64,000 bases of DNA, taken from the NCBI GenBank assembly GCA_000091205.1, contig AP006490.2. The stretch is one strand, 5' to 3'. This stretch comes from Cyanidioschyzon merolae (Eukaryota). Below the pieces are notes generated by a model, which saw nothing but the letters and a program-made list of their open reading frames with translations, made no database searches and was not told the DNA's origin. Of the stretch, positions 229 through 60,720 are shown piece after piece; within the stretch, counting starts at the first letter, position 1; each line of letters begins with the position of its first letter. A program made the translations under genes and the position numbers.

Positions 229-709
229 AAATACATGGACCTAAACAGACAACATAGCACAGTTTGAAGCAGTCATGACGCGCCAACGTGCCGTGCGTAT
301 GCGTCGCAGCAGCTCAGCGCCCAATGTTTTCCGCGTTACGAAATCGACGTTTCTTATCCTGGCAACCCTGGATGTGCGCTGGTTATCGATAGCTATGGAC
401 GCTCCAGCGTAGACCGCCTCAGCGCTGGCTAGTAGACGCTATCGTCACGAGAGCGCCTACCGCCGCAGCACACTTGTTTGACAGATCTGAATCTTATTGT
501 AACATTACGTATAAAAATATATCTTATGGTCACGGGTGCATTGCGGCGGCGGCGATCGTCGGCGTCGATGCCCCTTGTCTCCCGTAGCCTGCATCGGCAG
601 CCTGTCTGGCGTTTGCACGAGCTTTGTTTCGAGCGCGCTGCACCACCCTAGGACACGAGGTGTCGACAACGTACCTCGTTCCGTGAGCAGTGTCTAGAGA
701 TCGAACGTC

Positions 710-1606
710 ATGGCGTTCGTCAAAGTCGTCAAAAACAAGGCATACTTCAAGCGGTTCCAAGTCAAGCCTCGACGCCGGCGGGAAGGGAAGACTGACTACC
801 ACGCTCGAAGGGCCTTGATCATCGTTGACAAAACCAAGTATAACACCCCAAAGTATCGTCTTGTCGTTAGGATTACGAACTCGGATGTGATCTGCCAGAT
901 TGTAACGGCTCGTGTTGAAGGAGACAAAGTGATAGCAGCGGCGTACGCGCACGAGCTCCCTCGTTATGGCATCAAGGTTGGTCTGACGAACTTTGCTGCA
1001 GCCTATGCCACTGGTTTACTCGTAGCCCGGCGGACGCTGACGATTCTCGGGCTTGCCGATGCATACCAGGGTAAGGTTGAGGCGGACGGCGAGCTTTACC
1101 AGGTGGAGCCGGTCGGGGAGACCCGCCCCTTCCGAGCGGTGCTGGACGTCGGGCTCGTGCGAACGACGACTGGCCATCGGGTGTTCGCGGCGATGAAAGG
1201 CGCGGTTGATGGAGGAATCGATATTCCACACAGCGAGAAACGTTTCCCAAAGTATAAGAAGGGATCCGAGTTCGACCCTGAGGAGCTGAAAGCACGCATA
1301 TATGGTAACCACGTGGCCGACTACATGCGAATGCTACGAGAGGAAGATCCCGAAAAGTACCAGCGGCAGTTCTCTCGTTATATTCAAGCAGGAATTGATC
1401 CCGATCAGTTGGAGGACATGTATCGGGAGGCCCATCGACGCATCCGAGAAGATCCACGCGCGGTTCTAACCGACAAGTCTCGTGTAACGAAGCGCCCACG
1501 AAAGACACCTAAGTTGAGTCGCGAAGAGAAGCAGGCGCGGCTGGCGGCGCGGTTAGCAGCGCTCGCCCGCTCTGGCGCCACGGAATCGATGGTAACCGTT
1601 TCATGA
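710..1606 (+). CDS. RPL5: 60S ribosomal protein L5 (uL18), full length, no intron
   Basis: 298-aa ORF '[34 protein letters not shown]...' is collinear with the eukaryotic L5/uL18 family. The basic C-terminal tail is present. Confidence 0.92.
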
Positions 1607-2586
1607 AATGGCAACACAGGCGTACCAAAAATGCTTACCGACGAGCACGGTCAGTCGGGTCGCGCGCTTCACCAAGGACAATGCGCAGCTAGCGCAACTC
1701 CCAAAACCGCACCAGACGCAGCGAAAGCTAAAGGAGTATCGTTGCCGTTCAAGAAGCTCGAGATGCTCCTTCTGTGTATCCAAGTTTTCAGCGCAGCCGC
1801 AACCTCGTCACAAACGGTACTCGATTCAGAGCGCAAAGACGCAGATTGCCATAGTACTTGAGCGCTCGTAAACCTGCCTGCTTTACGAGCCTACAACGAA
1901 CGCACATGGAATAGCCTTGAGCATGCCGCCTCCAGCGCTGTGGTGAAGAGCCCGATACGCGGTAGCGACTCCGATCGATGGACGCACACTGCTAGTCTAC
2001 AGCATCCAGCCAGGTTAGCTGAATCGATTGCTTGATCTACTGATTGACCGATTGATTGATTCTGTACGCCCGTCCGGAATACTCATGCGGCGCTGGTGGA
2101 ATCTAGAAGCGTCCGCAGACCAAAAGACGATGCTTTGACCGGTTCAGGAGCACGCGCATCTCGCGGGAATTCTGGGTATTTCCATCCATACGGTACCGTT
2201 CGAAAAACGCATCTATGCGGTGATTCTCAATGGTGCACGATCCAAACATATTTGTTGAGACTGCCGCGAGCGCTTGCAGTGCTTTCGAGAGCCTCGAAAG
2301 ACACCAGCGTAACTCGATAGGAAGAAAGCTGCGTTCGACAAACATCAGCCGGCATTCCCGCTGCGAAACTAGGTTCGCTCGATCCAGCTGCCTTTCTGGT
2401 GTCGAGCACGACGCAGGCGCTTGTCCCAGCACCGGATGCACTGTTGCCATAGTCGCGCTATGCAACTAGGACGTTGTTTCGGTACCGTAGAGGGGGTGTC
2501 GGGTCGCGGATCCAGGGGCGATACCCCTGTTTGGAATACCCCACCACGAAGCCGGTGCTGTCGTCGGGTATCCCCACAGGACACCC

Positions 2587-3450
2587 TTAGTTCAGCGGGA
2601 GCAGCGAGGCACGCAACTTCTCGATGTACGCCTGTGGACGTGGAACGTAGCCTGCACGGTGCTGCTCTACTGCTGCCAAATACTCAGAAAGAGGCATCCA
2701 TCGAACCTGCTCCACCTCTTCTTTTTGAAGGAGAAAAGTGTGCGACGTCGCTGACGTGCCGAGCGCATCGGCTTCATCGGCGTTGGCGGTGGCGGTAGCG
2801 GCCCCTGGGATGCACACAACGTAAACGCTCTGAACCTCGCGGTCCCGGAGGTGATCGTCGACGTACTCGCTCCGTACAGTAAACAAGAGTTCCGGCTCGA
2901 CGCTCCCAATACCGAGTTCTTCTTCGAGTTCCCGCTTAGCAGCTGTCGAGAGGTCGTGTTCGCCACTATGCAAGTGCCCAGCAGCAGACACATCCCAACA
3001 GAGCGGGTGCGTATCCTTAGCCGCACTTCGGAGCTGGAGGAGCACTGCATCAGACGCGGGGTCGTACAACCATACGTGCACCGCGCGATGCCAGTCGCCG
3101 TCCCGATGAACCTCGTGCCGCAACTTTTTCCCGACAATTGTATGCAAGTCAGTCTGGTCGAGAACATCGAACCACTCGGGCTTGCTGGTACCTCTATGAC
3201 GTATGTCGGTGTAGTGGCCGCGTAAGCCGCGAGCACCGCACGAGCGCTGCACGCGGTAAAAGCCACGCCACGACAAACCTGACAGCAAACCGCACCTTGC
3301 AGGAAGACTCGCCGGACCTGAAACACCGACACCCGACAGCTGCACAAAACCTGCTTGCATAAAAGCGGATCGGAAACCAAAACCCGGAGCTCGTTCCAGG
3401 CCAAACAAGCGCTCAGTTCCACAGTAGGGCAGTTGCAGCAACGCCAGCAC
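2587..3450 (-). CDS. Nudix hydrolase family protein; true start is probably an internal Met
   Basis: Nudix box G-x5-E-x7-REUxEExGU is visible as 'GHLHSGEHDLSTAAKRELEEELGI'. The ORF is 287 aa. Confidence 0.72.
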   Translation of the reverse strand: MLALLQLPYCGTERLFGLERAPGFGFRSAFMQAGFVQLSGVGVSGPASLPARCGLLSGLSWRGFYRVQRSCGARGLRGHYTDIRHRGTSKPEWFDVLDQTDLHTIVGKKLRHEVHRDGDWHRAVHVWLYDPASDAVLLQLRSAAKDTHPLCWDVSAAGHLHSGEHDLSTAAKRELEEELGIGSVEPELLFTVRSEYVDDHLRDREVQSVYVVCIPGAATATANADEADALGTSATSHTFLLQKEEVEQVRWMPLSEYLAAVEQHRAGYVPRPQAYIEKLRASLLPLN

Positions 3451-12495: not shown

Positions 12496-13199
12496 GTGGT
12501 CGTTTTTCTGCGGCAGTGAACACGTTGCCTAGTCTTCCGGAAAGTCTGAAGCCAACTGGAAAACGCTGCGTTGCTGCACTACTGCAGCGAGTCCTGTTTG
12601 AGAGCACGGGCCTGTGCTGGGTGTTGTTGTGGCTGCGCAAGGTGTCAGTGCCGGGTGTTGTTGTGTGATGCTTTCCGCGAAGAGGCGATGCAGAGCGCTG
12701 TAACTTGGGCTATTATGAGTCCAGAACCAGGGTCGTCACGCTAGAGCTTTCTTTGGAACAAGTCAGTTCCAAGATTGTACAGTATGATGTGCGGAACAGC
12801 GCTGCTGCGCGCGTTGTAACCTGTTCAACTTCTTTTCCAGAAACGCAGTGTTGAACGTGCGTGAAGAGTTTTGGGCTTCGATGAGCCTTGCTTGCGCTGC
12901 ACTAGTTCTGGTGCTACGATTGAAACCGGACCGGGTACAATACTCTATGCCAAAGGCGGCTCGGAACCGAGACTTGACCACAGCATAGCGAGCCCTCGAG
13001 GCCTTTTGCGGGTACGCGCTTGCCGCTTCTTGCGGACCGGGCCAACGCAACGCTTGCACGTGCAAACGTACCGTTGTGTTTCGTGACGTGACGTCGTCGC
13101 AGGAAAGAAACTCGAATCCCAGACTCGGGTGCGTACCGTTTCGGCGATATGGATACGAGGGCGTGTAGTCTTTCAACCCGAGTGCGATTCACCCCCAGG

Positions 13200-13725
13200 T
13201 GCATGATTTCAAATGCTTTTTCGCGGTTTATAGCAGATGCGTTCCAAGTGCGTGCATTTTGAAGAAATAATTATCTAATGAAAAGGCATGGAGATGGAAG
13301 GCGGGGGATCCTAGAGGGCCGGTGTCATCGGGGGCCGGAAAAGTAACGAAAAGAAATCCACTTCTCGCCGGCCAACGAGCGACAAAGAGCAAGGAATGAA
13401 GAAGAAGAAAGAGAAGCGGCGCGAGAGACGGGAATGTATTGGTACACAGGGCACGAGGTCCCGGCATCCTTGTAATGGTGCGTTCCATCAGCGGCAAGAA
13501 ACGGATGGAGTTCGTGAACCAAGACTTCAACGCAGTCATCAAAATCAGACGGTGTGCAGTGCTGAAGAGAAGAGACTCGAGGAACTGACGCAATCCAATT
13601 TTGCGGGGTTACCTTTCAGAGTCGAAGTGTACAACGAGAAACTCAAGCCGATAGCAGCCGGCCGGTCAAACAAGACTGGGAGGCGTCTGCGGGTGCGTAT
13701 GTGTATATACCCTCCATGGTCGTGA
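13200..13725 (+). mobile_element. Internally deleted (MITE-like) derivative of the TnpB/Fanzor-like element: about 250 bp of the 5' region fused to about 270 bp of the 3' terminus
   Basis: 13205-13290 'gctttttcgcggtttatagcagatgcgtt...' matches the copy at 27600-27700 ('gctttttcgcggtttagagcagagacgtt...'), with weaker homology to about 13450. 13455-13720 then encodes '...MEFVNQDFNAVIKIRRCAVL...VEVYNEKLKPIAAGRSNKTGRRLRV'. This matches the element C-terminus and its 'ggccggtc...gggaggcgtctgc' 3' module. Confidence 0.6.
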
Positions 13726-14327
13726 AACGTTGTTCGTTTTAATGGTCACATATAGCATGCGACTCAACGGAATGCTGCGACGCAGAAACGACCTACCGAC
13801 CTCAGTATCCATCATGCGTACTCTGCAAGCGTGGTCGGAACAGGTTCGTGGCGGGCCAGTCATGGACCATTGCATACGCTGCCACGAAGCTGAACGGGAT
13901 ACTGGACCCTTGTCGATGTATTCGACGACGACGTACGACTTGAAACTGTGATGATATTTGGTTTTACAAATGCCGCTGGTACATCCATGCCTGCGCACTT
14001 GAGCTTGTCTCTGCAATGTTCCCCGAATACCATCGCGCGCTTTAGATCATCAATACCTGTATTGCCAGAGATAAGCATATCGTATAAATTCGGATCATGT
14101 CTTCACATGGTTTGCATTGATTTCGATATCAACAGCTCGCACAGCGTGCCCCAGGCTGAGGCGTCGAGCGTCGCCTCGAGGTCGCGAGACGCTGCCAAGA
14201 GGTGCCGATGTGCCTTTGCGCAGCGTCTTCGCAGCGGGCCCAGCGCGTACCATACGTAACCGGCAACGCTGCACATGAATCCATGCCCTGCCACAGACCG
14301 ATGAACACATGACCTGTTTAACGAATC

Positions 14328-15908
14328 TTAGCTGTTCGGCCAGGCAACTGGAATCCGCAGCCTCGCCAAAACCGCAGAATGATCCGAGAGCGAAAAGTCC
14401 TCTTCAGGAAAAATGCGGGTTCGTGCCGCCTCCGGCACCGTGTAGCGATAGATGCGCACCGCACCGTTTTCGTCGCCATGCGCTATAACGGGTCCCTGCC
14501 GCGGATCAAACAGCAAATAATCGATACACTTTCCGTCATCAGTGATGGGATGCATCCCGCTGTGGGCAAGGCTGACTAGGTCGACGACCTGGAGGGCAGC
14601 GCCTTGTCGCGGTGCGCTTCCAAAGCGCTGCATCAGCTCCCGATACCAACGACTTTCATGCGGATTCTCCGGCGAGATTCGGGCGTTGATGTTGAAATCG
14701 CCAGTGATGAGTACCGGCCCTGCGTCATCCGCGACCTTGCGTGCGATAAAGTCACGCATTTCCTCCGCTTGATGAAAGCGAATCTCGGCGTGGTAGGCCT
14801 CCGGTTCATAGCCCGGTCGATCACCTGCTTGCATGTGCGTGCTGAAGATATGCAAGTAGCGTGCATTGGTCTGGCTCTCGACCCGCTTCGCTTGAACTGT
14901 GCTTGAAGGAAACGCGGAGCGATTCCATTTGCGCGGGAAGTCGGCAGGCCAGTACACTGGCAACTCAATGCGCGCATAGAGCACGCCCTTACCAACCAGC
15001 GCGTCGATCGTGTGGTACACCACGTTTCGATAGTGAATATAGTCCCATGCAACGATCGGGAAACGGCTGAAGATGCTGACGCCTCCATCGACGAATTTCG
15101 GAGGTATGCCAAGGATCCGCTTTGGCAGATAGACATGGTGGCGCAGGCCGTATTCCTTGAGCGCCGCCTGCATGGCTGAACGGCGATTGCTGTAGGCATC
15201 AAAGAGCTCTTGGAAGCATATGATGTCGAAGGAGGCAAGCTCAGGGAGCAGAAGTTTGAGGCGCTCATCTTTCAAGTCGTCACCGCTGGAGCCGGACACA
15301 CCTGGCGGCCGTACGCATATATTGTATGAGAGGAGGCGTACCGGCAGGCCCCGGCTACATACGTCATCCAACGCCGGGTCGGCGAAGAGGCGCGCTCTGT
15401 GCTGCCGCGCCACAGCGATGTATTCGCGGGTCCGGCGTCGATAGCTGTTCACCAACGTTGCTGCACCGAGCAGGAGCAATGCAAGGCCGAACGCCAGGGC
15501 AACAATATTCACCTTGGTCCGGTGAGTCTGCAAAAACCCTCTGCCACCACCAGTATTCGACAGGAAAAAATACGCAGCACCAGAGTCGAGAAACGCTTCG
15601 CTCGAGTCGCTATTCGCACGTGCTCCGAAGTACACAAGACCCAGGCTTGCGGCAGGTAGAGTTAACATAAGAACAGGAAACAGCTTGCGCACACTGACGC
15701 CAAGAAGTGTGGCCTTTCGCACCTGCTGGAACGAGAAGAACAAGGCCAGCAGCAGCTCAGAGATAACGGTGACGCCAAGTGCGAGCCAACAACCTCTTTG
15801 TGTTATCCACTTTCTCCACCAGGTGCTCCAACGTTCCACAGCATGAGACACAGCCGATGCTAATCCAATGCATACCTGAGTTGCATATGTACTCGCATCT
15901 GATTCCAT
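14328..15908 (-). CDS. Endonuclease/exonuclease/phosphatase (EEP) family membrane protein, neutral-sphingomyelinase-like
   Basis: EEP domain 'LLSYNICVRPP...FDIICFQELFD...VLITGDFNINAR...SDHSAVLARL' follows about three predicted TM helices. The ORF is 526 aa. Confidence 0.7.
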   Translation of the reverse strand: MESDASTYATQVCIGLASAVSHAVERWSTWWRKWITQRGCWLALGVTVISELLLALFFSFQQVRKATLLGVSVRKLFPVLMLTLPAASLGLVYFGARANSDSSEAFLDSGAAYFFLSNTGGGRGFLQTHRTKVNIVALAFGLALLLLGAATLVNSYRRRTREYIAVARQHRARLFADPALDDVCSRGLPVRLLSYNICVRPPGVSGSSGDDLKDERLKLLLPELASFDIICFQELFDAYSNRRSAMQAALKEYGLRHHVYLPKRILGIPPKFVDGGVSIFSRFPIVAWDYIHYRNVVYHTIDALVGKGVLYARIELPVYWPADFPRKWNRSAFPSSTVQAKRVESQTNARYLHIFSTHMQAGDRPGYEPEAYHAEIRFHQAEEMRDFIARKVADDAGPVLITGDFNINARISPENPHESRWYRELMQRFGSAPRQGAALQVVDLVSLAHSGMHPITDDGKCIDYLLFDPRQGPVIAHGDENGAVRIYRYTVPEAARTRIFPEEDFSLSDHSAVLARLRIPVAWPNS

Positions 15909-16855: not shown

Positions 16856-17815
16856 GGAGATGAATACAGCAGGCGTGGCGTGGATCGCAACTTGCTGCTT
16901 TGCACGAAATGCGTGAAAAATCACCCAAAGCAGCGGAATCGGGATTTGGACCATGCCATCGACACGCTGCGACTGTTGACATCGGAGCTGGAGGGTGGGG
17001 AGAGATCGGTGTATTTAAAGGCAGGGGAAAAGAGAAACAGAAAACAGGGGTCTCAGAACAGGCGCACAAAGGCTGATATTGATGGCCTCGCGAAGACGAG
17101 ACACAACCTTAGTCGTACACAACCGAGTCAGAGGGTACGACCCTTTCTATTTCATCCTGCTATGTACATAGAACAGTGTCGATTCTTCAGCACCAGACCT
17201 GAATAGATTCGATTTAGCGTTGAGCGCGTCTAGTGACGGGCAACGCCTACCGTCCACGACACCAAGATTGCGTTTTACGATCTGGGACAGAGGTCCTGCG
17301 GACTAGACACGTCCGCAGGGCTCGTGCTGTGTGCGCCACCACGGCAGCGACTGCAGAGGCGGTGCAGGCGCAGTCCCAATGCAGCGCATCTCAGTCAGGC
17401 TGACCCCGCTGGAACGAGGGAGAGTGGCGTCTCCATCGTCGCCGGGATTTCTCCAGCATACCGCTCCGTGCAGCCAGCACGAGATCTGCATGCACCAACG
17501 GTTTGGTCCTAGGAAGAAGTCGAATTCTGCCCTTGAATGGTATCACTCACTCCAGAATCCGAAGGCTGCGATGTTTCGCAAAGCCGCAGTATCACCAGGG
17601 TATGACCGCGACGACGCGTAGCGTAGCGCAGCGAGCGCGCACGGCAGGCTCCTGTTCAAGGAGGCTGCAGGGTCCAGCGTACATATTCTCCTCAGAAACA
17701 CTGCTCTACGGTTGAAGTAAGCAGAAACGTATTTGCAGCGATAAAATCTCTTCCAAATTCACCAGCAGCGTCTACGTACCTCAAAGAATCCGGTTCAAAA
17801 TATCCATCTCATTGC

Positions 17816-20152: not shown

Positions 20153-20810
20153 GACGTTCCCGGCAAACGGTCCTGAACTGCAAGATGCAACGCATCAACG
20201 ACGAGGCGGCGTTGAGCGCGCCAGCTCGGTTGGCGGAATAATCTGTCAAAGAGAGGTTGCTGCACTGGTCGGGCGCATGCATTTGCGCGATGATCTCTGA
20301 TGATAAACATTTTGTTCGGCGAAGCGTACGGAATACAAGTTTCCTGACGATGATTAGGGGAGCGAAAATTTCGCTACTGCATGGTTCATACAGCTGAGAC
20401 CCAGCATGGTCACCATTCAATACTTGTTTGCAGCATACCCATGTTGATCGTGGCATGCAGCAGGCTTTCATTACCGAAGCTGACTTTTCAACATACGAGT
20501 AGCCGCCCAAAAGTGACAGGTAGTCCCAGCAGCACGATGCTACGGAGCTCGTTGAGGATGCACTGCGAGCAAACCGCCCAGCAGCGCTCTTTTGCACGTA
20601 CCGTAACTTGCAGGCGTATGCGATGACCAAAGTGATTTGGATGGCGTGCGTTGTTGCCTGACAAGAAGCTCGACTGTTCACGGAGGCGTCGCAGACCCGT
20701 CGTCGTTCACAAGATGTATGCACACGTACGAGCACAGTGTCCATCGCTATTCGATTTCTACGCATGCTGCTGAACAGGAATGCATGCATCCGAGCACACG
20801 CATCGATTCG

Positions 20811-20882
<72 letters not shown>
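20811..20882. repeat. (TGCG)n microsatellite, about 18 units
   Basis: 'tgcgtgcgtgcg...' run. It produces the (THAR)n and (ACVR)n artefact ORFs around it. Confidence 0.95.
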
Positions 20883-22821: not shown

Positions 22822-23351
22822 AACATTCATGTGATATCGATTGCATAAATTGGATATAAAGGCTTGTTGGCGTCCGCTCCCACGCGCAGTTGGACAATCA
22901 TGACTTTAGCGTATATTTATGTATTAAACGGACACACTTCTCTGCATTCCGTTTTGCGGCTCTCCGCATGGGTGTCGATCACGGCTAGGCGAGCCCATTC
23001 CGAGCAACTAGGCGTCAATCGCTGGCGCTGCGACCCACGGACTGATAGGACGCGCTTTAGACAGAATGGCCCATTGTCTTGCTCCTAGCGCGCTGCGTGC
23101 CGCGTCTCCATACGCGTCGGACTCGTCGCGGCAACGTTGCGAAGACCCGTCGCCTCCGCGGCTGTTCGTTTTGTACACGGCAGAGCGGCGACTCGGTCCT
23201 GGACCATGCGCGTGATGCCTGTCGTCGCCCCGCAAAACGGCTGTCTCTCTAAGCGCTACACGTTTGCGCATTGTTTGCGTGTCGGCATGACGCGCAACTG
23301 GCAGAACAGCGCCGTATAGCACTCGCACAGACGCGAGCGTGGACAGAAAAG

Positions 23352-23422
23352 CAGGTACAGGCATAGGTACAGGCATAGGTACAGGCATAGGTACAGGCAT
23401 AGGTACAGGCATAGGTACAGGT
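23352..23422. repeat. 12-bp minisatellite (GTACAGGCATAG)n, about 6 units. The homologous site in the other palindrome arm (about 27105-27125) has about 2 units.
   Basis: 'gtacaggcataggtacaggcatag...' run. It generates the (PMPV)n and (YACT)n artefact ORFs. Confidence 0.9.
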
Positions 23423-23620
23423 GTGGGCTCCAGGTCGGCCCCGGAGAAGGAAGCGTGTGCAAGTACCATGGCGGCTAAAAATCGTTCGCAAAATATCACT
23501 TTATAGGCATCGAGGCTACGCATCAACGCACGGACGATCACTCACTCGCTTTCCATAGGTCGTATCCTTCCTCCATTGCATCCGGTCTTCCTTACATCAA
23601 GGCTTTCACCGCTCTCCGCT

Positions 23621-23914
23621 TTAGTTCCCCTGGAACTTTTCCTTGGTGGCATCTGCTGCGTGCTCTATTCCTTTCTTCGCAGACTGACCGGTTTCCTTCA
23701 GGTGATCCACTGCATCACCCGCCTTGTCTTGAGCTTTCTCCTGTGCGGACTTTTGCCCGGTGAGATCACGGAACTTGTCAGAGATCGTCTCCTTCGCCGA
23801 TGAAAACGCACCAGTGACAGACTCTTTCGCAGAATCCAAAGCGCCACCCGCTTTCTTCTCCGTATCTTTGAGAGCCGACTGTGCTGAGCTTGTATCTTGA
23901 GCTCCGGAAGACAT
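23621..23914 (-). CDS. Small hydrophilic stress-protein-like gene, copy A (97 aa; CsbD/LEA/Con-6-like, K/E/A/Q/G-rich)
   Basis: 'MSSGAQDTSSAQSALKDTEKKAGGALDSAKESVTGAFSSAKETISDKFRDLTGQKSAQEKAQDKAGDAVDHLKETGQSAKKGIEHAADATKEKFQGN*'. The paralog in the other arm has the same length and about 75% aa identity. The listed ORF 23621..24934 is a chance read-through from the upstream element. Confidence 0.6.
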   Translation of the reverse strand: MSSGAQDTSSAQSALKDTEKKAGGALDSAKESVTGAFSSAKETISDKFRDLTGQKSAQEKAQDKAGDAVDHLKETGQSAKKGIEHAADATKEKFQGN

Positions 23915-24040
23915 ATCACAATTTATAATGCTTTCGTAAACTCGAAAAATGCATATGCAAATGAGGTACCACGGCGCGCGCGGTGGCCGCACAGCCACAA
24001 ACACAGGAGATTTTACCGCAACAGGACCCGCACGCACCGC

Positions 24041-25320
24041 AGTTTGAAAGTCGAACGACGGCGGTGTACAGTAGCGGCGAACGATGCGCCCTAGACGACG
24101 TCTCCAACTGAGGTGCAGACGCCTCCCGGCCTTTTTGGACCGGCCACCCGCTACTGCTTCCAACTTTTTCTCAAATAATTCCACTTTGGGAGGTTGTCCA
24201 ATAACGTTCTCTCGTGGCAACTCTGGAGGTCTGCTCTCGAGCACCGCACATGTCGTTATCTTGATAGCGGCGTTAAAGTCTCGGTTCACAAACTCCATAC
24301 GTTCCGTGCCATCATTGGTTGTACTTACTAATGCAAGCAGTCCCCGAACTTTCGCCCTCCTTTCCATTTGCGCTTCCGTCAGCGGTCCGTACTTTGCTAT
24401 TCCCTCAGGGCTGCTCCGACACTTTTCTATCTCGACACTTTGAAGTGTACACCCCAGTTCATGGTGTGTATACGATGTTCGGAACTCATCTATCGATATC
24501 GTAACAAAACGTCGTGCACACTCTATGTACGTTCTCGTCGTTAGAGCTGGTGTACACCTTTTTTGGGTCTTCCAGCGCCCTGATCCGTACGCTACTACCA
24601 GCCTTTGGCTCTCGTCCTCCTTCAGGGCGTTCAACTCATTGAAAAAGTTCGCGAGCACGCGCTGCCTCCCACCGTATAGACTCATTCGCAGACGAGCCCA
24701 CCGGGGCTTTGTATACTCCTCCCGTAGCGCCTCCCGATGAGGAACACGAACTTCCATGACTTTCCGAGAAGCTTGAAAGTGTGCTCCGCGGCCCGTCACC
24801 TCGCTCAAAGCTTCCAGGTGATCCTTCATTCCTGCATCCCATGCAGGAATTTTCTTCCTCGCATTCATGACTCCCGATTCTCGATAGTATCTTGCTCTCG
24901 GGAACCTCAAAAGACGCATGTCTTTCTGACGCAAGGAACCGTCAGTACTATCTTCCGCACGCTACGCTGCGCGATGGTTATGATACTCGTATTCTCAGGG
25001 TCCGCGCCAACGACAAAGCCGTTATCTTGCACTTTCTGCACCGCAGGATCCGCCTCCTTCTCATCTTCATGCTGCACCACGTCAACGACAAAGTCGTTAT
25101 CCTGCACTTTCTGCGTCGCGGTACCCGCCTCCTTCTCATCTTCTTGCTGCGCCACGTCAACGACAAAGTAGTTATCCTGCACTTCCTGTGTGGCAGGATC
25201 CGCCTCTTTGTTTTCTGCATCCTTCGTCACGGGCGGAGCCGAGGGCGGAACTGGCCGATCTGTCTTCAACCGCCGATAGTGTACACACAAGGCTACTCCA
25301 TCGGTTTCGATCATCCCAGT
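24041..25320 (-). mobile_element. TnpB/Fanzor-like element, copy 1. The 3' about 1.3 kb is present; the 5' end is truncated at the palindrome centre. It carries a frameshift shared with copy 3 and has lost its stop codon (TGA to TGT).
   Basis: ORFs 24907..25326 (- '...VGADPENTSIITIA') and 23621..24934 (- 'MRQKDMRLLRF...MEFVNRDFNAAIKITTCAVLE...GRSKKAGRRLHLSWRRRLGRIVRRY'). About 98% identical to the 3' half of the 27.4-30.1 kb copy. Confidence 0.8.
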
Positions 25321-25372
25321 GAACAACTTTTGTTTGCTGACTTTGAGCCGTTCGAAACTGAAGATATTCTTC

Positions 25373-26572
25373 GTTGGGATGATCGAAACCGATGGAGCAG
25401 CCTTGTGTGTACACTATCGGCGGTTTCAGGCGGATCATCCAGCTCCGTCTTCGACTTCGCCGGGACGGAGCATGAAGCGAAGAAAGAGGCGGATCGTGCC
25501 ACGCAGAAAGTGCAGGATAAAGAATTTCCCATTGACGCTACGAAGCATGAAGATGAGATGGAGGCGGATACCGCGACGCAGGAGATGCAGGATAACGACT
25601 TTGTCGTTGGCGCGGACCCTTGGAACACGAATATCATTGGCATGGCTGTACCCAAGCGTGCGGAAGATGGTATCAACGACAGCCCATTTCAGAGAGACAT
25701 GCGTCTGTTGAGATTCTCGAGAGCAAGATACTACCTAGAATTGGGAATCATGAATGCAAGGAAGGAAATTGAGGCATGGAATGCGGAAGTGAAAGAGCAT
25801 CAGGAAGCTTTGAGCGAGGTGACAAGCCGAGGAGCGGGCTTTCAAGCTTTTCTGAAATTCATGGAAGTTCGCATTGCGCACTGGGATGCATTGTGGGAGG
25901 AGTATACAAAGCCCCGGTGGGCTCGTTTGCAAATGAATCTATACGTTGGGAAGCAGCGGGCCTTCGCGAGTTTTTTCAATCAGTTGAGTGCCCTGAAGGA
26001 GGATGAAAATCAGAGGCTCGTAGTAGCGTATAGAGCAGGGCGCTGGGCGCCCAAGAAAGGCACTACGCCAGCTCCAACGACGGGGGCGTACAAGGAGTGC
26101 GCACGGCGTTTCGTCGCGATACCGATAGATGAGTTCCGTTCGTCCTATACACTCCATGAACTGGGGTGTACACTTCAGAGAGTGGAGATGGAAAAGTGCC
26201 AACGGAGCCCTGAGGAAATAGCAAAGTACGGACCTCTGACGGAAGAGCAAATGGAAAGGAGGGCGAAACTTCGGGGGCTACTTGCATTAGTAAGTACAAC
26301 CAGTGATGGCAAGGAACGTATGGAGTTTTTAAACCGAGACTTTAACGTCGCTATCAATTTAAGGAGATGTGCGGTGCTGGAGACGAGACCTCCAGAGCTG
26401 ACAAGAGAGAACTTTGTTGGACAACCGCCCAAAGTAGAACTATATGAGAAAATATGGAATCAGTAGTAGGTGGCCGGTCCAAAAAGGCTGGGAGGCGTCT
26501 GCACGTCAGTGGGAGATGTTTCGTCTAGGGCGCGTGCTTCGCCACTATTGTACACCGTTGGCGTCGTTCGAG
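25373..26572 (+). mobile_element. TnpB/Fanzor-like element, copy 2. The 3' about 1.2 kb is present; this is an older, more diverged subfamily member and is in-frame through the RuvC-I region.
   Basis: ORF 24892..26466 from '[16 protein letters not shown]' onward reads '...DNDFVVGADPWNTNIIGMA...ERMEFLNRDFNVAINLRRCAVLETRPPELTRENFVGQPPKVELYEK'. About 80% aa identity to other copies. The 3' module 'ggtggccggtccaaaaaggctgggaggcgtctgcacgtcag...gtacaccgttggcgtcgttcga' is present. Confidence 0.75.
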
Positions 26573-26605
26573 TGCGAAAGGTGTTCCCTTAGCGTCGCAG
26601 TGACA

Positions 26606-26899
26606 ATGTCTTCTGGGTCGCAGGATACCTCTTCTGGTCAATCAGTTCTCAAAGATGCCGAGGCGAAGGTAGGCAGTGCATGGGAATCCACGAAGGAGTC
26701 AGTTTCTGAAGCGTTCACTTCGGCCAAGGAGACTATCTCTGACAAGTATCGTGATCTCACCGGCCAAAAGTCCGCGCAGGAGAAAGCCCAAGACAAGGCG
26801 AGCGAGGCGGTGGATCACCTAAAGGAAACCGGTCAGTCCGCGAAGGAGAGTTTGCAGCACGCTGCAGATGCAGCCTCGGAAAAGTTAAAGGACGGCTAA
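26606..26899 (+). CDS. Small hydrophilic stress-protein-like gene, copy B (97 aa)
   Basis: 'MSSGSQDTSSGQSVLKDAEAKVGSAWESTKESVSEAFTSAKETISDKYRDLTGQKSAQEKAQDKASEAVDHLKETGQSAKESLQHAADAASEKLKDG*'. Same length as copy A, intact ORF, and it begins about 35 bp after the copy-2 element terminus. Confidence 0.6.
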   Translation: MSSGSQDTSSGQSVLKDAEAKVGSAWESTKESVSEAFTSAKETISDKYRDLTGQKSAQEKAQDKASEAVDHLKETGQSAKESLQHAADAASEKLKDG

Positions 26900-27703
26900 C
26901 GGAGAGAGCGTAGAAAGACTTGAGTGAAGGATGCACGGAAGTAAAACAGGAAGGATACGACCTATGGACAGCGAGTGAGTGATCGTCCGTGCGTTGATGC
27001 GTAGCCTCGATGCCTATAAAGTGATGTTTTGCGAACGATTTTTAGCCGCCATGGTACTTGCACACGCGTCCCGCTCCGGGGCCGACCCGCAGCCCACACC
27101 TGTACCTATGCCTGTACCTGCTTTCCTGTCCACGCCCGCGTCTGTGTGAGTGCTATACGGCGCTGTTCTGCCAGTTGCGCGTCATGCCGACACCCAAACA
27201 ATGCGCAAACGTATAGCGCTTATAGAGAGATAGTTGTTCCGCGGGGCGAGCGCCCGCAATCGCAGTCGAGGGCACAATCGACTCGATCGCTGCCGCACGG
27301 GGCGCGACGCATCGCACGCTGTGGTGCAGCGCAGCGCGTACCGGCCTCTGGAAGCAAGTTGTGCGCAGCAGCGATCTGAGGCCTTTATCCATCGGTGCAG
27401 CGTCTCGCGCGGTGCACGCATCGCGCTCGGTGAGCGTACCCGGGAGATCAGGCAGATATGAGACACGACGCGCATGTCGCCGCTGAAGGGAAACGCGATC
27501 CTGACCATTCGTTGACGTGTTGTTCTAACGTAAAACTTGTATTTGCATTGGAATCGTAACAGAATATATTGTTTCATCTCAGTCGTGTTTCAACCTTCAA
27601 GTAAAAATACTCGAGCGCTTTTTCGCGGTTTAGAGCAGAGACGTTAATAGTGCGTTCTAAATCAAAAAAAAAAAACTAAAAAAGGAAAGTTCTGGACAGC
27701 GAA

Positions 27704-30068
27704 GTGGAGGACCCTGGAGGGTCAGTATCGCTGGCAGGCGAGAAAAAAGGAGCAAAAGAGCCAAACATAGAAGAACGAGACAAGACGAAGAAGCAGACGG
27801 GGGAGGTCCTACGTCAATGGCTGCAAGAAAGACGACAGTACGACGAGATGGAGGTGAAAACCTGTCTTCTCGGCTATAGCAAGGATTCGTAGAAGAAAAA
27901 ATTGCGAGAGTCCATCAGAAACTGTGACGAGTCGGACTCCATGAGTTTTCGTAAGACTTCTTTAGGAATGATGCATCTAGCGAGGGAGATGTATCGCGAC
28001 GTGACGCACATGGAAACAGTCGATGTTCCAGAAAAATTTTGCAACAGGAACTTTATTCTTCACCTGATGCTTGGTACAGGGGAAACATCGAGGAGAAATG
28101 AGCGGGTTCACGCCCTCCACGAAAACTTCGCGGAATTCCGCTTCGAGGGTACTCGGTACAGAGGTGACTCGAATATTTACATATACGGGGCGATGAAGTA
28201 CCTCACGAATCTGAAGAACCATTTGACAGTGAACCTTGAACGTTTCATGAGACGCTCGGTGTTTGCACTCTACCGGGGCATCTCTCGCACAGGAATACGG
28301 GCGATTACCAATGGCATCACCAACGAGCACCAGAATGAAGATGAAGTCGAATTTGTCGACAAGAAGGCGTCAAACGAGCGCACGAATGAAGCCTCTGTAA
28401 TCCGTGCGGTTATACAAGAGCGCCGTGCAATCTTGGGGTTGGCGGATCCAATAGACAAGATACCAGAGTTGAAAAAAAATATAAGGAAAGACACTATCGC
28501 CTCATCCTGCGATATTTCGTGTTTTTGCACCGAGAGCCCGAACGCAGTGCGCAGATGAAGCCGAGTGAGGAAAAAATATGAAGAGTGGGAGAGACGGAAA
28601 GCTTTCCTAATGGGGAAGCGCTTCAACGTCGTTCCAATGTGCAGCATCAAGTCACATTTTGTGACTGTCGACCCAACGTACGTTACAGCAAATTGAAGGA
28701 GATCTGTCCGGAGTTCAATGTAAGGAAGACAGAGTTCGCCGGTGAAAACCGGGAGACGTACTGGAAGAACATCTTCAATTTCAAACGGCTCAAAGTCAGC
28801 AAACAAAAGTTGTTCACTGGGATGATCGAAACCGATGGAGTAGCCTTGTGTGTACACTATCGGCGGTTGAAGACAGATCGGCCAGTTCCGCCCTCGGCTC
28901 CGCCCGTGACGAAGGATGCAGAAAACAAAGAGGCGGATCCTGCCACACAGGAAGTGCAGGATAACGACCTTGTCTTGACGTGGAGCAGCATGAAGATGAG
29001 AAGGAGGCGGATACCGCGACGCAGAAAGTGCAGGATAACGACTTTGTCGTTGACGTGGTGCAGCATGAAGATGAGAAGGAGGCGGATCCTGCGGTGCAGA
29101 AAGTGCAAGATAACGGCTTTGTTGCTGGCGCGGACCCCGGGAATACGAATATCATCACCATCGCAGCACCGAGGCGTGCGGAAGATGGTACTGACGGTTC
29201 CTTGCGTCAGAAAGACATGGGTCTTTTGAGGTTCCGGAGAGCAAGATACTATCGAGAATCGGGAGTCATGAATGCGAGGAAGAAAATTCCTGCATGGGAT
29301 GCAGGAATGAAGGATCACCTGGAAGCTTTGAGCGAGGTGACGGGCCGCGGAGCACACTTTCAAGCTTCTCGGAAAGTCATGGAAGTTCGTGTTCCTCATC
29401 GGGAGGCGCTACGGGAGGAGTATACAAAGCCCCGGTGGGCTCGTCTGCGAATGAGTCTATACGGTGGGAGGCAGCGCGTGCTCGCGAACTTTTTCAATGA
29501 GTTGAACGCCCTGAAGGAGGACGAGAGCCAAAGGCTGGTAGTAGCGTACGGATCAGGGCGCTGGAAGACCCAAAAAAGGTGTACACCAGCTCTAACGACG
29601 AGAACGTACATAGAGTGTGCACGACGTTTTGTTACGATATCGATAGATGAGTTCCGAACATCGTATACACACCATGAACTGGGGTGTACACTTCAAAGTG
29701 TCGAGATAGAAAAGTGCCAGAGCAGCCCTGAGGGAATAGCAAAGTACGGACCGCTGACGGAAGCGCAAATGGAAAGGAGGGCGAAAGTTCGGGGACTGCT
29801 TGCATTAGTAAGTACAACCAATGATGGCACGGAACGTATGGAGTTTGTGAACCGAGACTTTAACGCCGCTATCAAGATAACGACATGTGCGGTGCTCGAG
29901 AGCAGACCTCCAGAGTTGCCACGAGAGAACGTTATTGGACAACCTCCCAAAGTGGAGTTATTTGAGAAAAAGTTGGAGGCAGTAGCGGGTGGCCGGTCCA
30001 AAAAGGCCGGGAGGCGTCTGCACCTCAGTTGGAGACGTCGTCTAGGGCGCATCGTTCGCCGCTACTGA
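27704..30068 (+). pseudogene. TnpB/Fanzor-like RuvC-family protein gene, disrupted (in-frame stop SKDS*; about 1-bp deletions near 28667 and 28960; a possible 100-nt GT..AG intron at 28530-28629)
   Basis: Reconstructed order: N-terminal '...MYRDVTHMETVDVPEKF...' is followed by a WED-like '...[36 protein letters not shown]'. An acidic 25-aa repeat of about three units precedes 'GADPGNT' (RuvC-I D). Next come '...LVVAYGSGRW' (RuvC-II position, Glu apparently replaced), a degenerate Zn-ribbon 'TSYTHHELGC...C', then 'NRDFNAAIKI' (RuvC-III D). Compare the TnpB consensus RDxNAAxNIxRRG. Confidence 0.7.
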
Positions 30069-30075
30069 ACCACTG
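29930..30075 (+). ncRNA. Candidate omegaRNA-like conserved 3'-terminal module, overlapping the ORF's last about 45 codons and ending at the element terminus
   Basis: A single string is conserved in all copies and in both solo fragments: 'ggtggccggtccaaaaaggccgggaggcgtctgcacctcagttggagacgtcgtctagggcgcatcgttcgccgctactg(tacaccgccgtcgttcgacttt)'. Short hairpins are visible: GGCC...GGCC, GAGG...CCTC, CGTCT...AGACG. By analogy, the TnpB/Fanzor guide RNA scaffold is encoded at the 3' end of the ORF and the right end. Confidence 0.3.
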
Positions 30076-30132
30076 GCGGCAGCGTTTTTCTTTTGAAAAG
30101 CGTTTGCTGCTCGGGGTGCTAGCGTTCCTGAA

Positions 30133-32073
30133 ATGGAACCGAAACCTACTGTGTTCAACTCTTTAACTCGTGAAAAGGAGCAGATTACCCTTTCATCGGA
30201 TCGCAGCTTTCTGAGCTGGTATATCTGCGGACCAACGGTCTACGATGCCGCACACGTGGGGCACGCGCGGAACTACGTCTCTTTCGACATCGTTCGACGC
30301 TTGCTCGTTGATTATTTCGGCATACCGGTACTTTATCAAATGAACATAACGGATGTTGACGATAAAATCATTCAAAAGTCGTTTGATTCTGGGGAGAGCT
30401 TCACAAACATAGCGCGTCGGTTCGAGGCGGACTTTTTCGACGACCTGGAAGCGCTGCACTGCCTGCCACCGGACGTTGTTACCCGAGTGACCGAGTACAT
30501 TCCTGAGATAACGGCATATGTTCGCAAACTTATGGAACGTGGATATGCCTACGAGGCGGCCTCTGGTTCCGTCTACTTTGACGTGGAAGCGTTTGAGCGA
30601 AGTGGACGACACCGTTTTGGGAAGCTCAGGCCTGCCGCTGCCGCAGCAGCAACGAGCGTTGAGACCCGACCGCATGCGGGTGCAAACGGGGTCGATCCTC
30701 CCAGCCTTGAGCAGCTCTCTGTCCAGGAAGAAAAACGGAACCCTCGAGACGCTGCTCTGTGGAAAGCCTCCAAGTCAGCAATGGAGCCAGGTTGGGAAAG
30801 TAACGGTCTAGCGCGGGGGCGTCCCGGCTGGCACATTGAATGTGCGGTCATGGCGTCGCTGGTCAGCTGTGCGGGTACGACACACTTGGATATTCACACC
30901 GGTGGTATCGATCTCGAGTTTCCGCATCATGACAATGAGATCGCGGAAGCGGAAGCGTACTTCGAGACCGACCTGTGGTCACGCTACTTTCTCCATTCGG
31001 GGCATTTGAATATTGAGGGCCTCAAAATGTCCAAATCGCTGAAAAATTTCATTACCATTCGTGAAGTTCTCCGTCGATGGAATTGGCGCCAACTACGTGT
31101 TCTGTTTCTCATGCACCATTACCAGACGACCATGAACTATTCTGAAGAGAGCATGACACATGCGGCAGCAGTCGAAAGGACCATCCAGGAATTTATGCGT
31201 TCTACAGAGGCAGAGCTGCGGGCGCACTTGCCCGAGGAACGCCATCGGAAGCCCACAAAAGTCGATCTAGAGCTCTTATACCAGGTACTGCCTGCAACTG
31301 AGGCCACTGTTCGTGCCCACCTGAGCGACAACTTCAACACACAGGACGCGTTGCAGGACTTGCTTACACTGATTCGCACGGTGAATCTCCATCGGCATGA
31401 AACACCGGGGGGCGTTGGATACGCCACTCTACATCACATACGCAGCTCCGTCGGTCGTATACTATCTTGTTTCGGTCTTGACTACGACGTCAAGGATGAT
31501 GTCGCGTCCCAGGGCGGAGCTGCACTGGCCTCCGTCGAACCGTGGATTCAGGGGGCCGTGCGCCTCCGCGACCAGATTCGCGAAGTTGTACTTTCGGCGG
31601 ATGCAAATACTGACGCGAACGCCCTCAAAGAAAGTATTCTTGCGGTGTGCGACGAGTTTCGGGATGCGGTATTACCGCCTCTGGGGGTACGGCTCGAGGA
31701 TCGGACGTATCCGAAACCAGCAATCTGGAAATACGATGATCCTGCGGCTATTCAGGCGGACATCGAGCAGCGGCGGCAAGCCGAAGCTGCGCGAGCAGCG
31801 GAGAAAGAGGCCCGTCGTAGAGAAGCGGAACAGCGGCTCTTGAAAGAGCTCGAACAAGGTCGCACGCATCCTAGTCAAATGTTCCTGGACCCGAGTCTCT
31901 ATTCCCAATGGCGAGAGGACGGCATTCCGACGCATGACGCCGAGGGTCGCGAACTCGAAAAATCTCGCGTGAAGCGACTCTTGAAAGAGCAACAGCGTCA
32001 AGAGCGTCTACATCGCAAATTTCTGGAAGCACAGGCTTCGGGCCTCTTGTCCAAACTTGGCATGGAGCCTTGA
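30133..32073 (+). CDS. Cysteinyl-tRNA synthetase (class I aaRS), 646 aa
   Basis: HIGH motif 'AAHVGHARNY' and KMSKS motif 'KMSKSLKNF' are present and the protein is collinear with CysRS. The Lys/Arg/Glu-rich C-terminal extension is typical of eukaryotes. Confidence 0.9.
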   Translation: MEPKPTVFNSLTREKEQITLSSDRSFLSWYICGPTVYDAAHVGHARNYVSFDIVRRLLVDYFGIPVLYQMNITDVDDKIIQKSFDSGESFTNIARRFEADFFDDLEALHCLPPDVVTRVTEYIPEITAYVRKLMERGYAYEAASGSVYFDVEAFERSGRHRFGKLRPAAAAAATSVETRPHAGANGVDPPSLEQLSVQEEKRNPRDAALWKASKSAMEPGWESNGLARGRPGWHIECAVMASLVSCAGTTHLDIHTGGIDLEFPHHDNEIAEAEAYFETDLWSRYFLHSGHLNIEGLKMSKSLKNFITIREVLRRWNWRQLRVLFLMHHYQTTMNYSEESMTHAAAVERTIQEFMRSTEAELRAHLPEERHRKPTKVDLELLYQVLPATEATVRAHLSDNFNTQDALQDLLTLIRTVNLHRHETPGGVGYATLHHIRSSVGRILSCFGLDYDVKDDVASQGGAALASVEPWIQGAVRLRDQIREVVLSADANTDANALKESILAVCDEFRDAVLPPLGVRLEDRTYPKPAIWKYDDPAAIQADIEQRRQAEAARAAEKEARRREAEQRLLKELEQGRTHPSQMFLDPSLYSQWREDGIPTHDAEGRELEKSRVKRLLKEQQRQERLHRKFLEAQASGLLSKLGMEP

Positions 32074-34959: not shown

Positions 34960-35300
34960 CGCTATGATGAGCGAAGCACCCGTTGTACGCAGTTTTGCTG
35001 CGTCGTTCCGTGCAGGCCTCTGACGCACCTGTTTGCGTAGCAGCGGTCAAACGTGGAACGTCAGCAGACGAAAACTGCCCTGACGCATCGATTATACGCA
35101 GTTTTGCTGCGTCGTTCCGTGCAGGCCTCTGACGCACCTGTTTGCATAGCAGCGGTCAAACGTGGAACGTCAGCAGACGAAAACTGCCCTGACGCATCCA
35201 TTGTACGCAGTTTTGCTGCGTCGTTCCGTGCAGGCCTCTGACGCACCTGTTTGCATAGCAGCGGTCAAACGTGGAACGTCAGCAAACGAAAACTGCCCAG
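34960..35300. repeat. Tandem repeat of a 109-bp unit, about 3.2 copies. Each unit is bounded by an inverted repeat (GCAGTTTTGCTG...CAGACGAAAACTGC).
   Basis: Units start at 34989, 35098 and 35207 and are about 97% identical. The repeat generates the repeated 'RSFAASFRAGL' and 'MRQRPARNDAAKLR' artefact ORFs. Confidence 0.9.
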
Positions 35301-43399: not shown

Positions 43400-43732
43400 T
43401 CGACGGACAACGTACCAGGTTTTTTCGTCGTTCCAAACAGGTTCTGGATCTCGATGTGGTAACGCAATATCTTTGCCAGAATAAATACAGGACGCGTGTC
43501 CACGCAGCGCCTCCAGCTAAACGAAAGCGAGTTCCGGGCCCAGGTGCGTACGCCGCAGACGGACCGGAATCCTTCTACGAGGACTCGAAACTCGCAAGTG
43601 ACTGTTTGATGGAGCTTCTCGGTGATCCGCGGCGGAGTGAGCTCTTCATCGCCTTGACTGCAGCAGCGGAAAGCGGATGGGACTTTGTCGCGCTGGCTGC
43701 GCGATCGGCGAAGCCTGTGCTCACACACCAAC
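43400..43732 (+). pseudogene. Trehalase gene fragment. 43562-43732 is about 95% identical to 49329-49501 of the intact trehalase gene. Upstream there is weaker protein-level similarity ('RVHAAPPAK' vs 'RYHAPAAEG').
   Basis: 'ccggaatccttctacgaggactcgaaact.gcaagtgactgtt.gatgga.cttctcggtgatccgcggcggagtgagctcttcatcgccttgactgcagcagcggaaagcggatgggactt' is shared. The fragment's 'ESGWDFVALAAR' is a degenerate version of the trehalase 'ESGWDFSSRW' motif. It ends about 12 bp before the right end of the 43.7-kb element. Confidence 0.75.
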
Positions 43733-46046: not shown

Positions 46047-46345
46047 GATCGTGGACTTGCTTTTTCATATCTTTCCTTTTTTTGTTTTTTTTGAAAAGGA
46101 ACGCTCTTTGGACGCTTGTGGTATATGCTGCGAAAAAACACTTGACTAGACTTGTTTGAAGTTTTAAACAAAAATGAGCTGAAAGACTGTACTTTGCTAC
46201 GAACTGAACGGAAATCCAACTTTTTACAGCTGAACAACACGCTTCTGATCGAGATCACGTTTCCCTTCAACGGCGAGATACATGTCGTGTCTCATGTCTG
46301 CCTGATCTCCCAGGTGCGCTCACCGATCGATGAAGGTCACGTGTC
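43745..46345 (-). mobile_element. TnpB/Fanzor-like element, copy 3. Near full length, minus strand. It carries a nonsense mutation (E to stop before MYRDVTH), the frameshift shared with copy 1, and others.
   Basis: Minus-strand ORF pieces 45771..46046, 45240..45770, 44609..45154, 44274..44636, 44046..44234 (other frame) and 43575..44000. The last reads 'MEFVNRDFNATINIRRCAVLERRPPALTRENFVRQPLKVELYEKKLEAVIGGRSNKTGRRLRVSWRR'. The 3' terminus is '...ctactgtacacgcccgacgtcgttcgacttt'. Confidence 0.8.
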
Positions 46346-60489: not shown

Positions 60490-60720
60490 ATAGGGCATCG
60501 AGTTGGCCTCGAAATGCGATCGTGAAAAGTCGTGAGACGTGTCGGCAAACGCTGTGGCGCCAGCGTAGCACGCGTGGTGACGAGAGCGAACCTAGTGGGG
60601 CAACCGCTCCTGATCGAGGTGTGCCAGGAGAAGCTGAAACCGATAGCATGCGGTCGGTCGAAAAACAAAAGGCTGGGAGGCGTCTCCATGTCGGTGCAGA
60701 GACGTGCACTCTATGGGTGT
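60490..60720 (+). mobile_element. Solo 3'-terminal fragment of the TnpB/Fanzor-like element, more diverged, lying 115-345 bp downstream of the CIA30-domain gene stop
   Basis: It encodes '...RANLVGQPLLIEVCQEKLKPIACGRSKNKRLGGVSMSVQRR', matching the element's '...RENVIGQPPKVELFEKKLEAVAGGRSKKAGRRLHLSWRRR'. DNA 'ggtcggtcgaaaaacaaaaggctgggaggcgtctcc' matches the 3' module 'ggccggtccaaaaaggccgggaggcgtctgc'. Confidence 0.6.

Follow-up and report, generated by a model that had tools for sequence, protein, structure and literature searches.

A decayed, internally deleted ~600-bp derivative of the Fanzor1-carrying element CMe-1 in Cyanidioschyzon merolae, very probably one copy of a nonautonomous family

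In the 64,000-nucleotide stretch of Cyanidioschyzon merolae DNA analysed here (“the window”) lies a short, non-coding derivative of the CMe-1A transposon family, which is very probably a decayed copy of a ~600-bp nonautonomous family descended from an old lineage of Fanzor1-carrying CMe-1 elements. It is clearly a derivative of CMe-1A and not a coding member of it: the end of the parental leader and the start of the Fanzor1 ORF run directly into the last part of the ORF and the 3′ terminus. The modules of this candidate element, and the other features of the window, are listed in Table 1.

The parent is the published CMe-1A Fanzor1 transposon of C. merolae (Bao & Jurka 2013, Mobile DNA 4:12; Repbase; PMC3627910). 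The portion of that paper concerned with CMe-1A gives ~150 copies in the genome, each ~80% identical to the consensus, describes the element as being without terminal inverted repeats (TIRs) and with undetermined target-site duplications (TSDs), leaves its class unassigned, and names as a separate element TE-N2_CMe, which equals the 5′ 635 bp of the CMe-1A consensus (PMC3627910). Our reference throughout is the 3169-bp CMe-1A consensus of Additional file 2 of PMC3627910, in which the ORF occupies positions 906–3110 and encodes 734 amino acids. That this protein is a Fanzor1, a RuvC nuclease of the TnpB superfamily, emerges from a profile (A7) composed of the CMe-1 protein P0007 and the distant relatives found by exhaustive profile search: it matches the solved Fanzor1 of Parasitella parasitica (9cf0, E 9e-19) and the Fanzor1 of Guillardia theta (9cer, E 3.5e-7), and the D and RDxNAAxN columns are invariant in the alignment of P0007 with its distant relatives. 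Single-sequence searches of Pfam and the PDB with the element proteins gave no significant match, the sole hint from single sequences being a sub-threshold Pfam match to Cas12f1-like_TNB at the RDxNAA motif; a Pfam search of ten distant relatives gave no match, and the AlphaFold2 model of P0007, made from a shallow family alignment, was too poor for use (pLDDT 40). Inside the Fanzor1 ORF, immediately upstream of the RuvC-I motif “GADPGNTN,” sits a 75-bp in-frame tandem repeat of 2.6–2.7 copies (window 28930–29122 and 25008–25206), whose number of units varies between family proteins and is larger in P0007.

Table 1. Features of the window, with the evidence by which each was delimited.
Feature	Position in window	Strand	Evidence
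Whole short element, decayed ~600-bp internally deleted CMe-1 derivative	13164–13749 (586 bp)	+	nhmmer with short-family profile, hmm 2–603, E 2e-155
5′ leader remnant, CMe-1A consensus 785–905	13164–13287	+	Local alignment; three-way alignment with copies A and B
Fanzor1 ORF-start remnant, ATG at 13288, ~50 codons	13288–13426	+	Consensus 906–968; to ~1070 via family consensus
Deletion junction zone	13427–13449	+	Aligns to consensus ~1046–1070 and ~2809–2834
Remnant of last ~95 Fanzor1 codons	13450–13695	+	tblastn with CMe-1 protein; DNA alignment, consensus 2840–3084
3′ untranslated tail and terminus, decayed hairpin at 13717–13748	13696–13749	+	Inter-copy homology ends here
Copy A, full-length but frameshifted CMe-1A, consensus 648–3169	27422–30102	+	blastn, 80% over 2686 bp
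Copy B, full-length, degenerate, “variant 2” leader	43735–46992	−	blastn, consensus 650–3169 at 46329–43735; leader homology with L017
Copy C, CMe-1 3′ half	25372–24056	−	blastn against consensus
Copy D, CMe-1 3′ half	25370–26563	+	blastn against consensus
Fragment E, solo 3′ fragment, old lineage	47147–47350	−	nhmmer, hmm 395–600; “KLQPIA”; same 3′ terminus as short family; CMe-1A consensus match at 47349–47201
Fragment F, solo 3′ fragment, old lineage	60578–60720	+	nhmmer, hmm 442–577; tblastn aa 692–720, “KLKPIA”; CMe-1A consensus match at 60578–60716
Solo TE-N2_CMe	17274–17649	−	Consensus 160–536
Solo TE-N2_CMe	57321–57944	−	Consensus 5–629
Solo TE-N2_CMe	57960–58461	+	Consensus 142–634
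CysRS gene (BAM79775.1)	30133–32073		Identical to C. merolae 10D protein
CMH080C gene	14328–15908	−	Identical to C. merolae 10D protein

Both parts of the candidate are directly homologous to the CMe-1A consensus, and the two similarities are co-linear and on the plus strand. By blastn, the 5′ module (13163–13352) corresponds to consensus 785–968 with 74.9% identity over 191 bp (E 1e-30), and the 3′ module (13397/13403–13690) to consensus 2792/2794–3084 with 70% identity over ~300 bp (E 9e-36); the extreme 3′ motif of the consensus (3150–3167) is recognisable at 13728–13745. Against dinucleotide shuffles the 5′ part scores z = 58, the 3′ part z = 64, and the stretch 13205–13290 by itself z = 27.6. 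An earlier note, made by a model from the sequence alone, had claimed that the 5′ region of an element is here joined to its 3′ terminus, and with both matches so far above shuffles that claim holds. The direct alignment of 13205–13290 with 27600–27700, in the copy that the note used as its reference (copy A, whose ORFs are broken across three frames), scores 30, where shuffles average 7.5 (z 17) and 0 of 1000 attain that score. The stretch between the modules (13353–13447) has, taken alone, no significant match to the CMe-1A consensus (z 1.6), and its homology is visible only via the family alignment, in which 13164–13426 corresponds to consensus 785–~1070 and 13450–13749 to consensus ~2835–3169. 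The extent of 13200–13725 originally assigned to the element was slightly too narrow, the nhmmer match running from 13164 to 13749.

Within these limits, the leader remnant includes a 21-nt block, TTTTTCGCGGTTTATAGCAGA (13217–13237), that is identical to the CMe-1A consensus, and the ORF-start remnant has an in-frame stop and indels. The 3′ module holds a remnant of the RuvC-III motif, MEFVNQDFNAVIKIRR (13505–13552), and one frameshift near 13555–13573, and tblastn identifies its C-terminal remnants as amino acids 636–688 and 682–728 of the 734-aa Fanzor1. Of the coding sequence, only roughly codons 1–50 and the final 95 are left, with stops and a frameshift, and since consensus 1–784 and ~1071–2834 are absent, the candidate cannot encode Fanzor1. 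Compared with TE-N2_CMe, it has no match to consensus 1–784. On the short element in metagenome assemblies, gene callers have called a 109-aa ORF (13396–13725, plus strand; 8184–8513 in L004), which crosses two frames of the Fanzor remnant and can almost certainly be dismissed as spurious; for annotation, it is the short element that explains the ORF at this locus.

The candidate is one of several such copies. Eighty loci were fetched from metagenome contigs via alignment of the C-terminal peptide, and the candidate can be aligned over its full length, junction included, with sequences in many of them at 63–69% identity (blastn). After places that recurred across samples had been merged, nhmmer gave nine distinct full-length short copies including the candidate, and two further partial matches to the short family at locus ends (L029 and L039). 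The multiple alignment shows the whole ~600 bp to be homologous among the short copies, including ~100 bp round the junction, and all nine full-length copies have one junction, in which consensus ~1070 is joined to ~2835. Their flanks, both upstream and downstream, are unrelated, except for two pairs with common extra 5′ element sequence. The identical breakpoint at multiple loci that the earlier note had named as evidence for movement of the deleted form is thus present in the candidate and eight other copies.

The flanking genes tell of dispersal as well: those beside four of the copies form clusters with C. merolae 10D proteins encoded on records of 902,900, 908,485, 1,232,258, and 1,621,617 bp, compared with 739,753 bp for the chromosome of the candidate (C. 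merolae 10D chromosome 8), and one of the neighboring proteins is an exact match to a C. merolae 10D protein. The paralogous short copies come from metagenome contigs of C. merolae-like populations, not from the 10D assembly; from the shared junction, the unrelated flanks, and the near-identical metagenomic genomes we conclude that this is a dispersed multi-copy family in the species lineage. The candidate locus itself was recovered from eight metagenomic strains, where it is 99.45–99.65% identical to the window with the same short copy present. The candidate is fixed in all sampled strains, and the comparison shows no empty site.

This fixation, unchanged and with no polymorphism that would show movement, is what one would expect had a full-length or 5′-truncated CMe-1 insertion simply lost its interior on the spot, the short form never having moved, and the degenerate state of all family copies in the window would fit such a history too. 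Eight further full-length copies, whose flanks are unrelated and which lie on other chromosomes, however have the same junction, together with ~100 bp round it, and we consider local decay very improbable. More improbable still, to the point of being negligible, is a chance meeting of two unrelated family fragments, one from the 5′ side and one a solo 3′ piece. Solo 3′ fragments are indeed present in the vicinity (E and F), but the modules of the candidate are co-linear, share one strand, and have diverged to a similar degree, and the other short copies align with its 586 bp over the full length.

How the short form arose can be read from its junction. The 602-bp short-family consensus aligns to CMe-1A 785–1070 and 2809–3084, and its positions 274–298 fit both ~1046–1070 and ~2809–2834, an imperfect microhomology of ~25 nt; because this stretch fits both places, the deletion is taken to have occurred at imperfect microhomology. 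It amounts to ~1764 bp (consensus ~1071–2834) rather than the ~2.1 kb given in the earlier note, and preserves the reading frame in the family consensus. An NJ tree built on the 3′ 240 columns places the short copies in one old, long-branched clade with the full-length sisters L025 and L089, and the ~45 CMe-1A-type copies, 0 of which carry the deletion, form a separate clade; with 240 columns and ~35% divergence the tree is poorly resolved, and its short clade includes the non-deleted L030 3935–4243. A “KLKPIA” C-terminal variant (listed as “KLQPIA” for E) and a 3′ tail of their own unite the short copies with fragments E and F. The best reading of these sequence relationships is that a single deletion took place in an old CMe-1 sub-lineage and was followed by amplification.

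Two other histories would also place the junction where it is. In the first, the two similar ~25-nt stretches of the ORF act as a deletion hotspot, at which many full-length copies lost their interior separately, as a junction within imperfect microhomology and the one non-deleted copy inside the short clade would allow. Recurrent deletion is nonetheless very improbable, given that none of the ~45 younger CMe-1A-type copies is deleted, that the short copies have lineage-specific substitutions (“KLKPIA”), a 3′ tail, and a hairpin version of their own in common, and that several of them start alike at consensus ~785–790. In the second, splicing took out the 1.76 kb as an intron, and the spliced transcript was then reverse-transcribed and inserted to give the short form; within the microhomology the junction can indeed be placed so that the removed segment begins with GT and ends with AG, and the 5′ start common to several copies could be a transcription start. 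Against this, the removed segment encodes the conserved Fanzor1 core, no full-length copy lacks it, there is neither a poly(A) tail nor a target duplication, one short copy (L061) has ~640 bp of extra leader, and GTGGTG is, to our knowledge, not a typical C. merolae splice donor, all of which makes a retrocopy extremely improbable.

On this reading, one in-frame loss of ~1.76 kb between the two similar ~25-nt ORF stretches joined the end of the leader and the first ~50–55 codons to the last ~95, the joined 3′ part also bringing with it the 3′ tail and the terminal hairpin, and the deleted form then multiplied to many unlinked sites. The loss probably came about by template switching or abortive repair at the microhomology, and the copying was probably done in trans by whatever machinery moves CMe-1. 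Such copying may well have been anchored at the 3′ end, which would fit the kept hairpin, the kept region that in Fanzor elements encodes the guide RNA, and the variable or truncated 5′ ends. Of the earlier description of the element as a nonautonomous derivative mobilised in trans, the internal deletion and subsequent amplification are borne out by the shared junction, and mobilisation in trans is likely.

The amplification is clearly old. Short copies are ~65% identical to each other and 73–82% identical to their consensus (81.5% for the candidate), and all of them have stops. No conserved blocks emerged when the short copies were searched for them: the best 15-nt window scores 0.77, whereas the maximum over column shuffles averages 0.79. 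Identities of 73–82% and the lack of conserved blocks mean that the short copies are neutral relics, and the candidate is such a relic, with no sign of present function. The suggestion that the retained ends mark the sequences needed in cis gains little here: the short copies are evenly conserved along their length, and no cis-element stands out beyond the boundaries that they share. We did not find the short family described in the literature searched, though Repbase may hold it; the related short element in the portion of Bao and Jurka on CMe-1A is TE-N2_CMe, not the ~600-bp form (PMC3627910).

The two ends of the element differ in how they were kept. Every short copy has the same hairpin-bearing 3′ terminus, which in the short-family consensus reads GGTCGTGAAACG-TTTT-CGTTTCAC(T)GACC and forms 13 bp (dG −17.8, z −6.4), while in the candidate the hairpin is decayed (dG −7.5, z −1.1). 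At this position the full-length copies have two other versions of the hairpin, CGTTCGA-CTT-TCGAACG and AACGTTTTTC-ATTT-GAAAAACGTT (z −2 to −3.3), and the existence of three sequence versions of the terminal hairpin indicates that structure has been kept while sequence changed.

The 5′ end, on the other hand, lies at consensus ~785, inside the leader, and of the two ends thought to be retained only the 3′ terminus is. Consensus 785–790 (“RGTCTTTCA”), give or take a few bases, is where the candidate, L042, L048, and L070 begin, with L073 starting nearby, whereas L061 has ~640 bp of additional leader, a full variant-2 leader, L030a reaches consensus 683 and then abuts an inverted TE-N2, and L028 and L077 have yet another 5′ region in common. 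This last region (L028 3600–3700, L077 2940–3040) resembles the 3′ terminus of another short element ~60–100 nt upstream, and L028 and L077 are possibly a tandem or dimer subfamily. Full-length elements extend ~140 to ~800 bp further into the leader than the candidate and have at least two alternative leaders, either the TE-N2-like consensus 1–647 or the ~830-bp “variant 2.” With the leaders of full-length elements so varied and its own start at ~785, the candidate is without the parent's 5′ terminus; the 200 bp upstream of it (12963–13162) has no significant similarity (z 0.7–2.5).

The full-length copies of the window are without the TE-N2-like 5′ 647 bp and have instead the ~830-bp leader, which contains a perfect palindrome, GGACACGTGTCC. 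The variant leader is seen at window 46329–46992 (minus strand) and in L014, L017, L022, L061, and L073, and in several loci an old 3′ fragment from a different CMe-1 copy lies before it (in the window, fragment E), which points to composite units that were seemingly copied as a whole. The sequence “CGATCAATAAAAC” was first taken as a 5′ terminus preceded by TTA; it is internal to the variant-2 leader.

In the window, the 3′ region is kept by all seven family pieces and the 785–1000 region by three of the seven; the fetched loci have variable 5′ starts, and as they were anchored on the 3′ peptide, only the window count is unbiased. Fragment E is 72% identical to 13536–13738, but its 5′ truncation falls elsewhere and it has no 5′ module. 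A T-rich 5′ flank accompanies both of the two TE-N2-type starts and about one of five short copies. That most short copies are without the parent's 5′ terminus is awkward for any mechanism that acts on both ends.

Neither end carries the marks that the term MITE, used in the earlier note, would call for. No inverted repeat was found between the two ends of 13100–13810, and in the TSD search the longest word common to the 5′ and 3′ flanks of the same copy averages 5.2 nt, as against 5.3 nt for mismatched flank pairs, so that duplications are not above chance; no target motif was found either. With no TIRs and no TSDs, the family is not a MITE in the strict sense, although it is MITE-like in size and number (~600 bp, non-coding, at least nine full-length copies), and the term fits only loosely.

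The Fanzor guide RNA has its coding region in the 3′ part of the element, where it overlaps both the end of the ORF and the right end (PMC10530073). The short elements might thus have been guide-RNA satellites, in which the promoter-proximal leader and the 3′ omega RNA module would programme Fanzor1 from full-length elements in trans. Were this so, Fanzor1 would cut the short elements' own empty sites and so drive their retention or homing, and the family would be a eukaryotic counterpart of the protein-less, guide-bearing IS200/IS605 derivatives, which would explain why the 3′ end is always kept. We regard it as unlikely.

RNAalifold on 22 3′ ends returned a weak consensus structure (−8.3 kcal/mol) with one compensatory pair, and an Rfam search gave no relevant match.

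In many single-sequence folds, the coding stretch CAGTAGTGG (“AVVGG” codons) forms a helix with CCACTACTG, located ~85 nt downstream in the 3′ tail, as in the full-length 3′ ends at window 29963–30110 and 43727–43874. The same helix appears with ribosum scoring and with an apparent compensatory change in L021, and is absent from the RNAalifold run. We have not relied on it.

Among known systems, the closest is of course CMe-1A itself, which like the candidate family has direct DNA homology in both modules, no TIRs, no detectable TSDs, and copies ~80% identical to their consensus and of similar age; the candidate differs in coming from an older sub-lineage, with “KLKPIA,” a shorter 3′ tail, and a different terminal hairpin sequence. 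The sections of Bao and Jurka devoted to Chlamydomonas reinhardtii describe CRe-1, CRe-2, and CRe-3 as Fanzor1-carrying nonautonomous Helitron2 elements with 5′ truncation and internal deletion but intact 3′ ends, the 5′ ends being truncated or bearing captured sequence, and read this as 3′-anchored, “one-ended” rolling-circle copying (PMC3627910). The short family is like them in its 3′ terminal hairpin, excess of 3′ ends, 5′ truncations, and internal deletions, and unlike them in that the CRe elements have TSDs of 7–19 bp, none of which were found in the C. merolae short copies. Insertion after TTTT, as in the CRe elements, applies to only a minority of the C. merolae copies; the CRe elements also have asymmetric terminal inverted repeats (ATIRs) and a 5′ hairpin. 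In its variable 5′ and constant 3′ ends, then, the short family appears to resemble the Helitron2-type Fanzor1 carriers, although no RepHel partner is known for C. merolae.

Ds of Ac, KP of the P element, and MITEs likewise lost their coding interior at a microhomology junction and were still amplified, but they keep both termini with TIRs and make TSDs, whereas the short family does neither and most of its members are without the parent's 5′ terminus. The PATEs of IS200/IS605 are short, protein-less derivatives of the TnpB family that keep the hairpin-bearing ends and potentially the guide-RNA region. They are alike in principle to the short family, with the difference that no HUH transposase, left-end hairpin, or guide RNA is known for the C. 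merolae elements.

The short family is no new kind of system, but an ordinary and clean case whose copies are long dead. What it adds is that a Fanzor1-carrying element of unassigned class gave rise to a protein-less derivative that still multiplied, apparently narrowing the cis needs of CMe-1 to the 3′ ~300 bp, with the 5′ terminus dispensable, and that a red-algal element can tentatively be linked to the 3′-anchored behaviour of the Helitron2-type Fanzor1 carriers of Chlamydomonas.

The window also holds several rearrangements and repeats in their own right. A palindromic duplication occupies 23225–27249 (center ~25370), where the 5′-truncated copies C and D abut head to head at consensus ~2000; its arms, ~78–83% identical, continue into a duplicated LEA-like gene (23621–24000 and 26600–26899), and the flank at 23225–23520 matches 27000–27249. 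Similar head-to-head pairs occur in the fetched loci L030 (3113–3359/3935–4243), L074, L058, and L051, and two of the solo TE-N2_CMe copies in the window (57321–57944 and 57960–58461) form a head-to-head inverted pair 16 bp apart. Finally, there is a 109-bp tandem repeat at 34986–35298 (2.9 copies, 98% identical), unrelated to the short element, a perfect (CGTG)18 microsatellite at 20809–20882, and a perfect 12-mer repeat, AGGTACAGGCAT × 5.8, at 23353–23421, which reads as PVPM repeats in one ORF.
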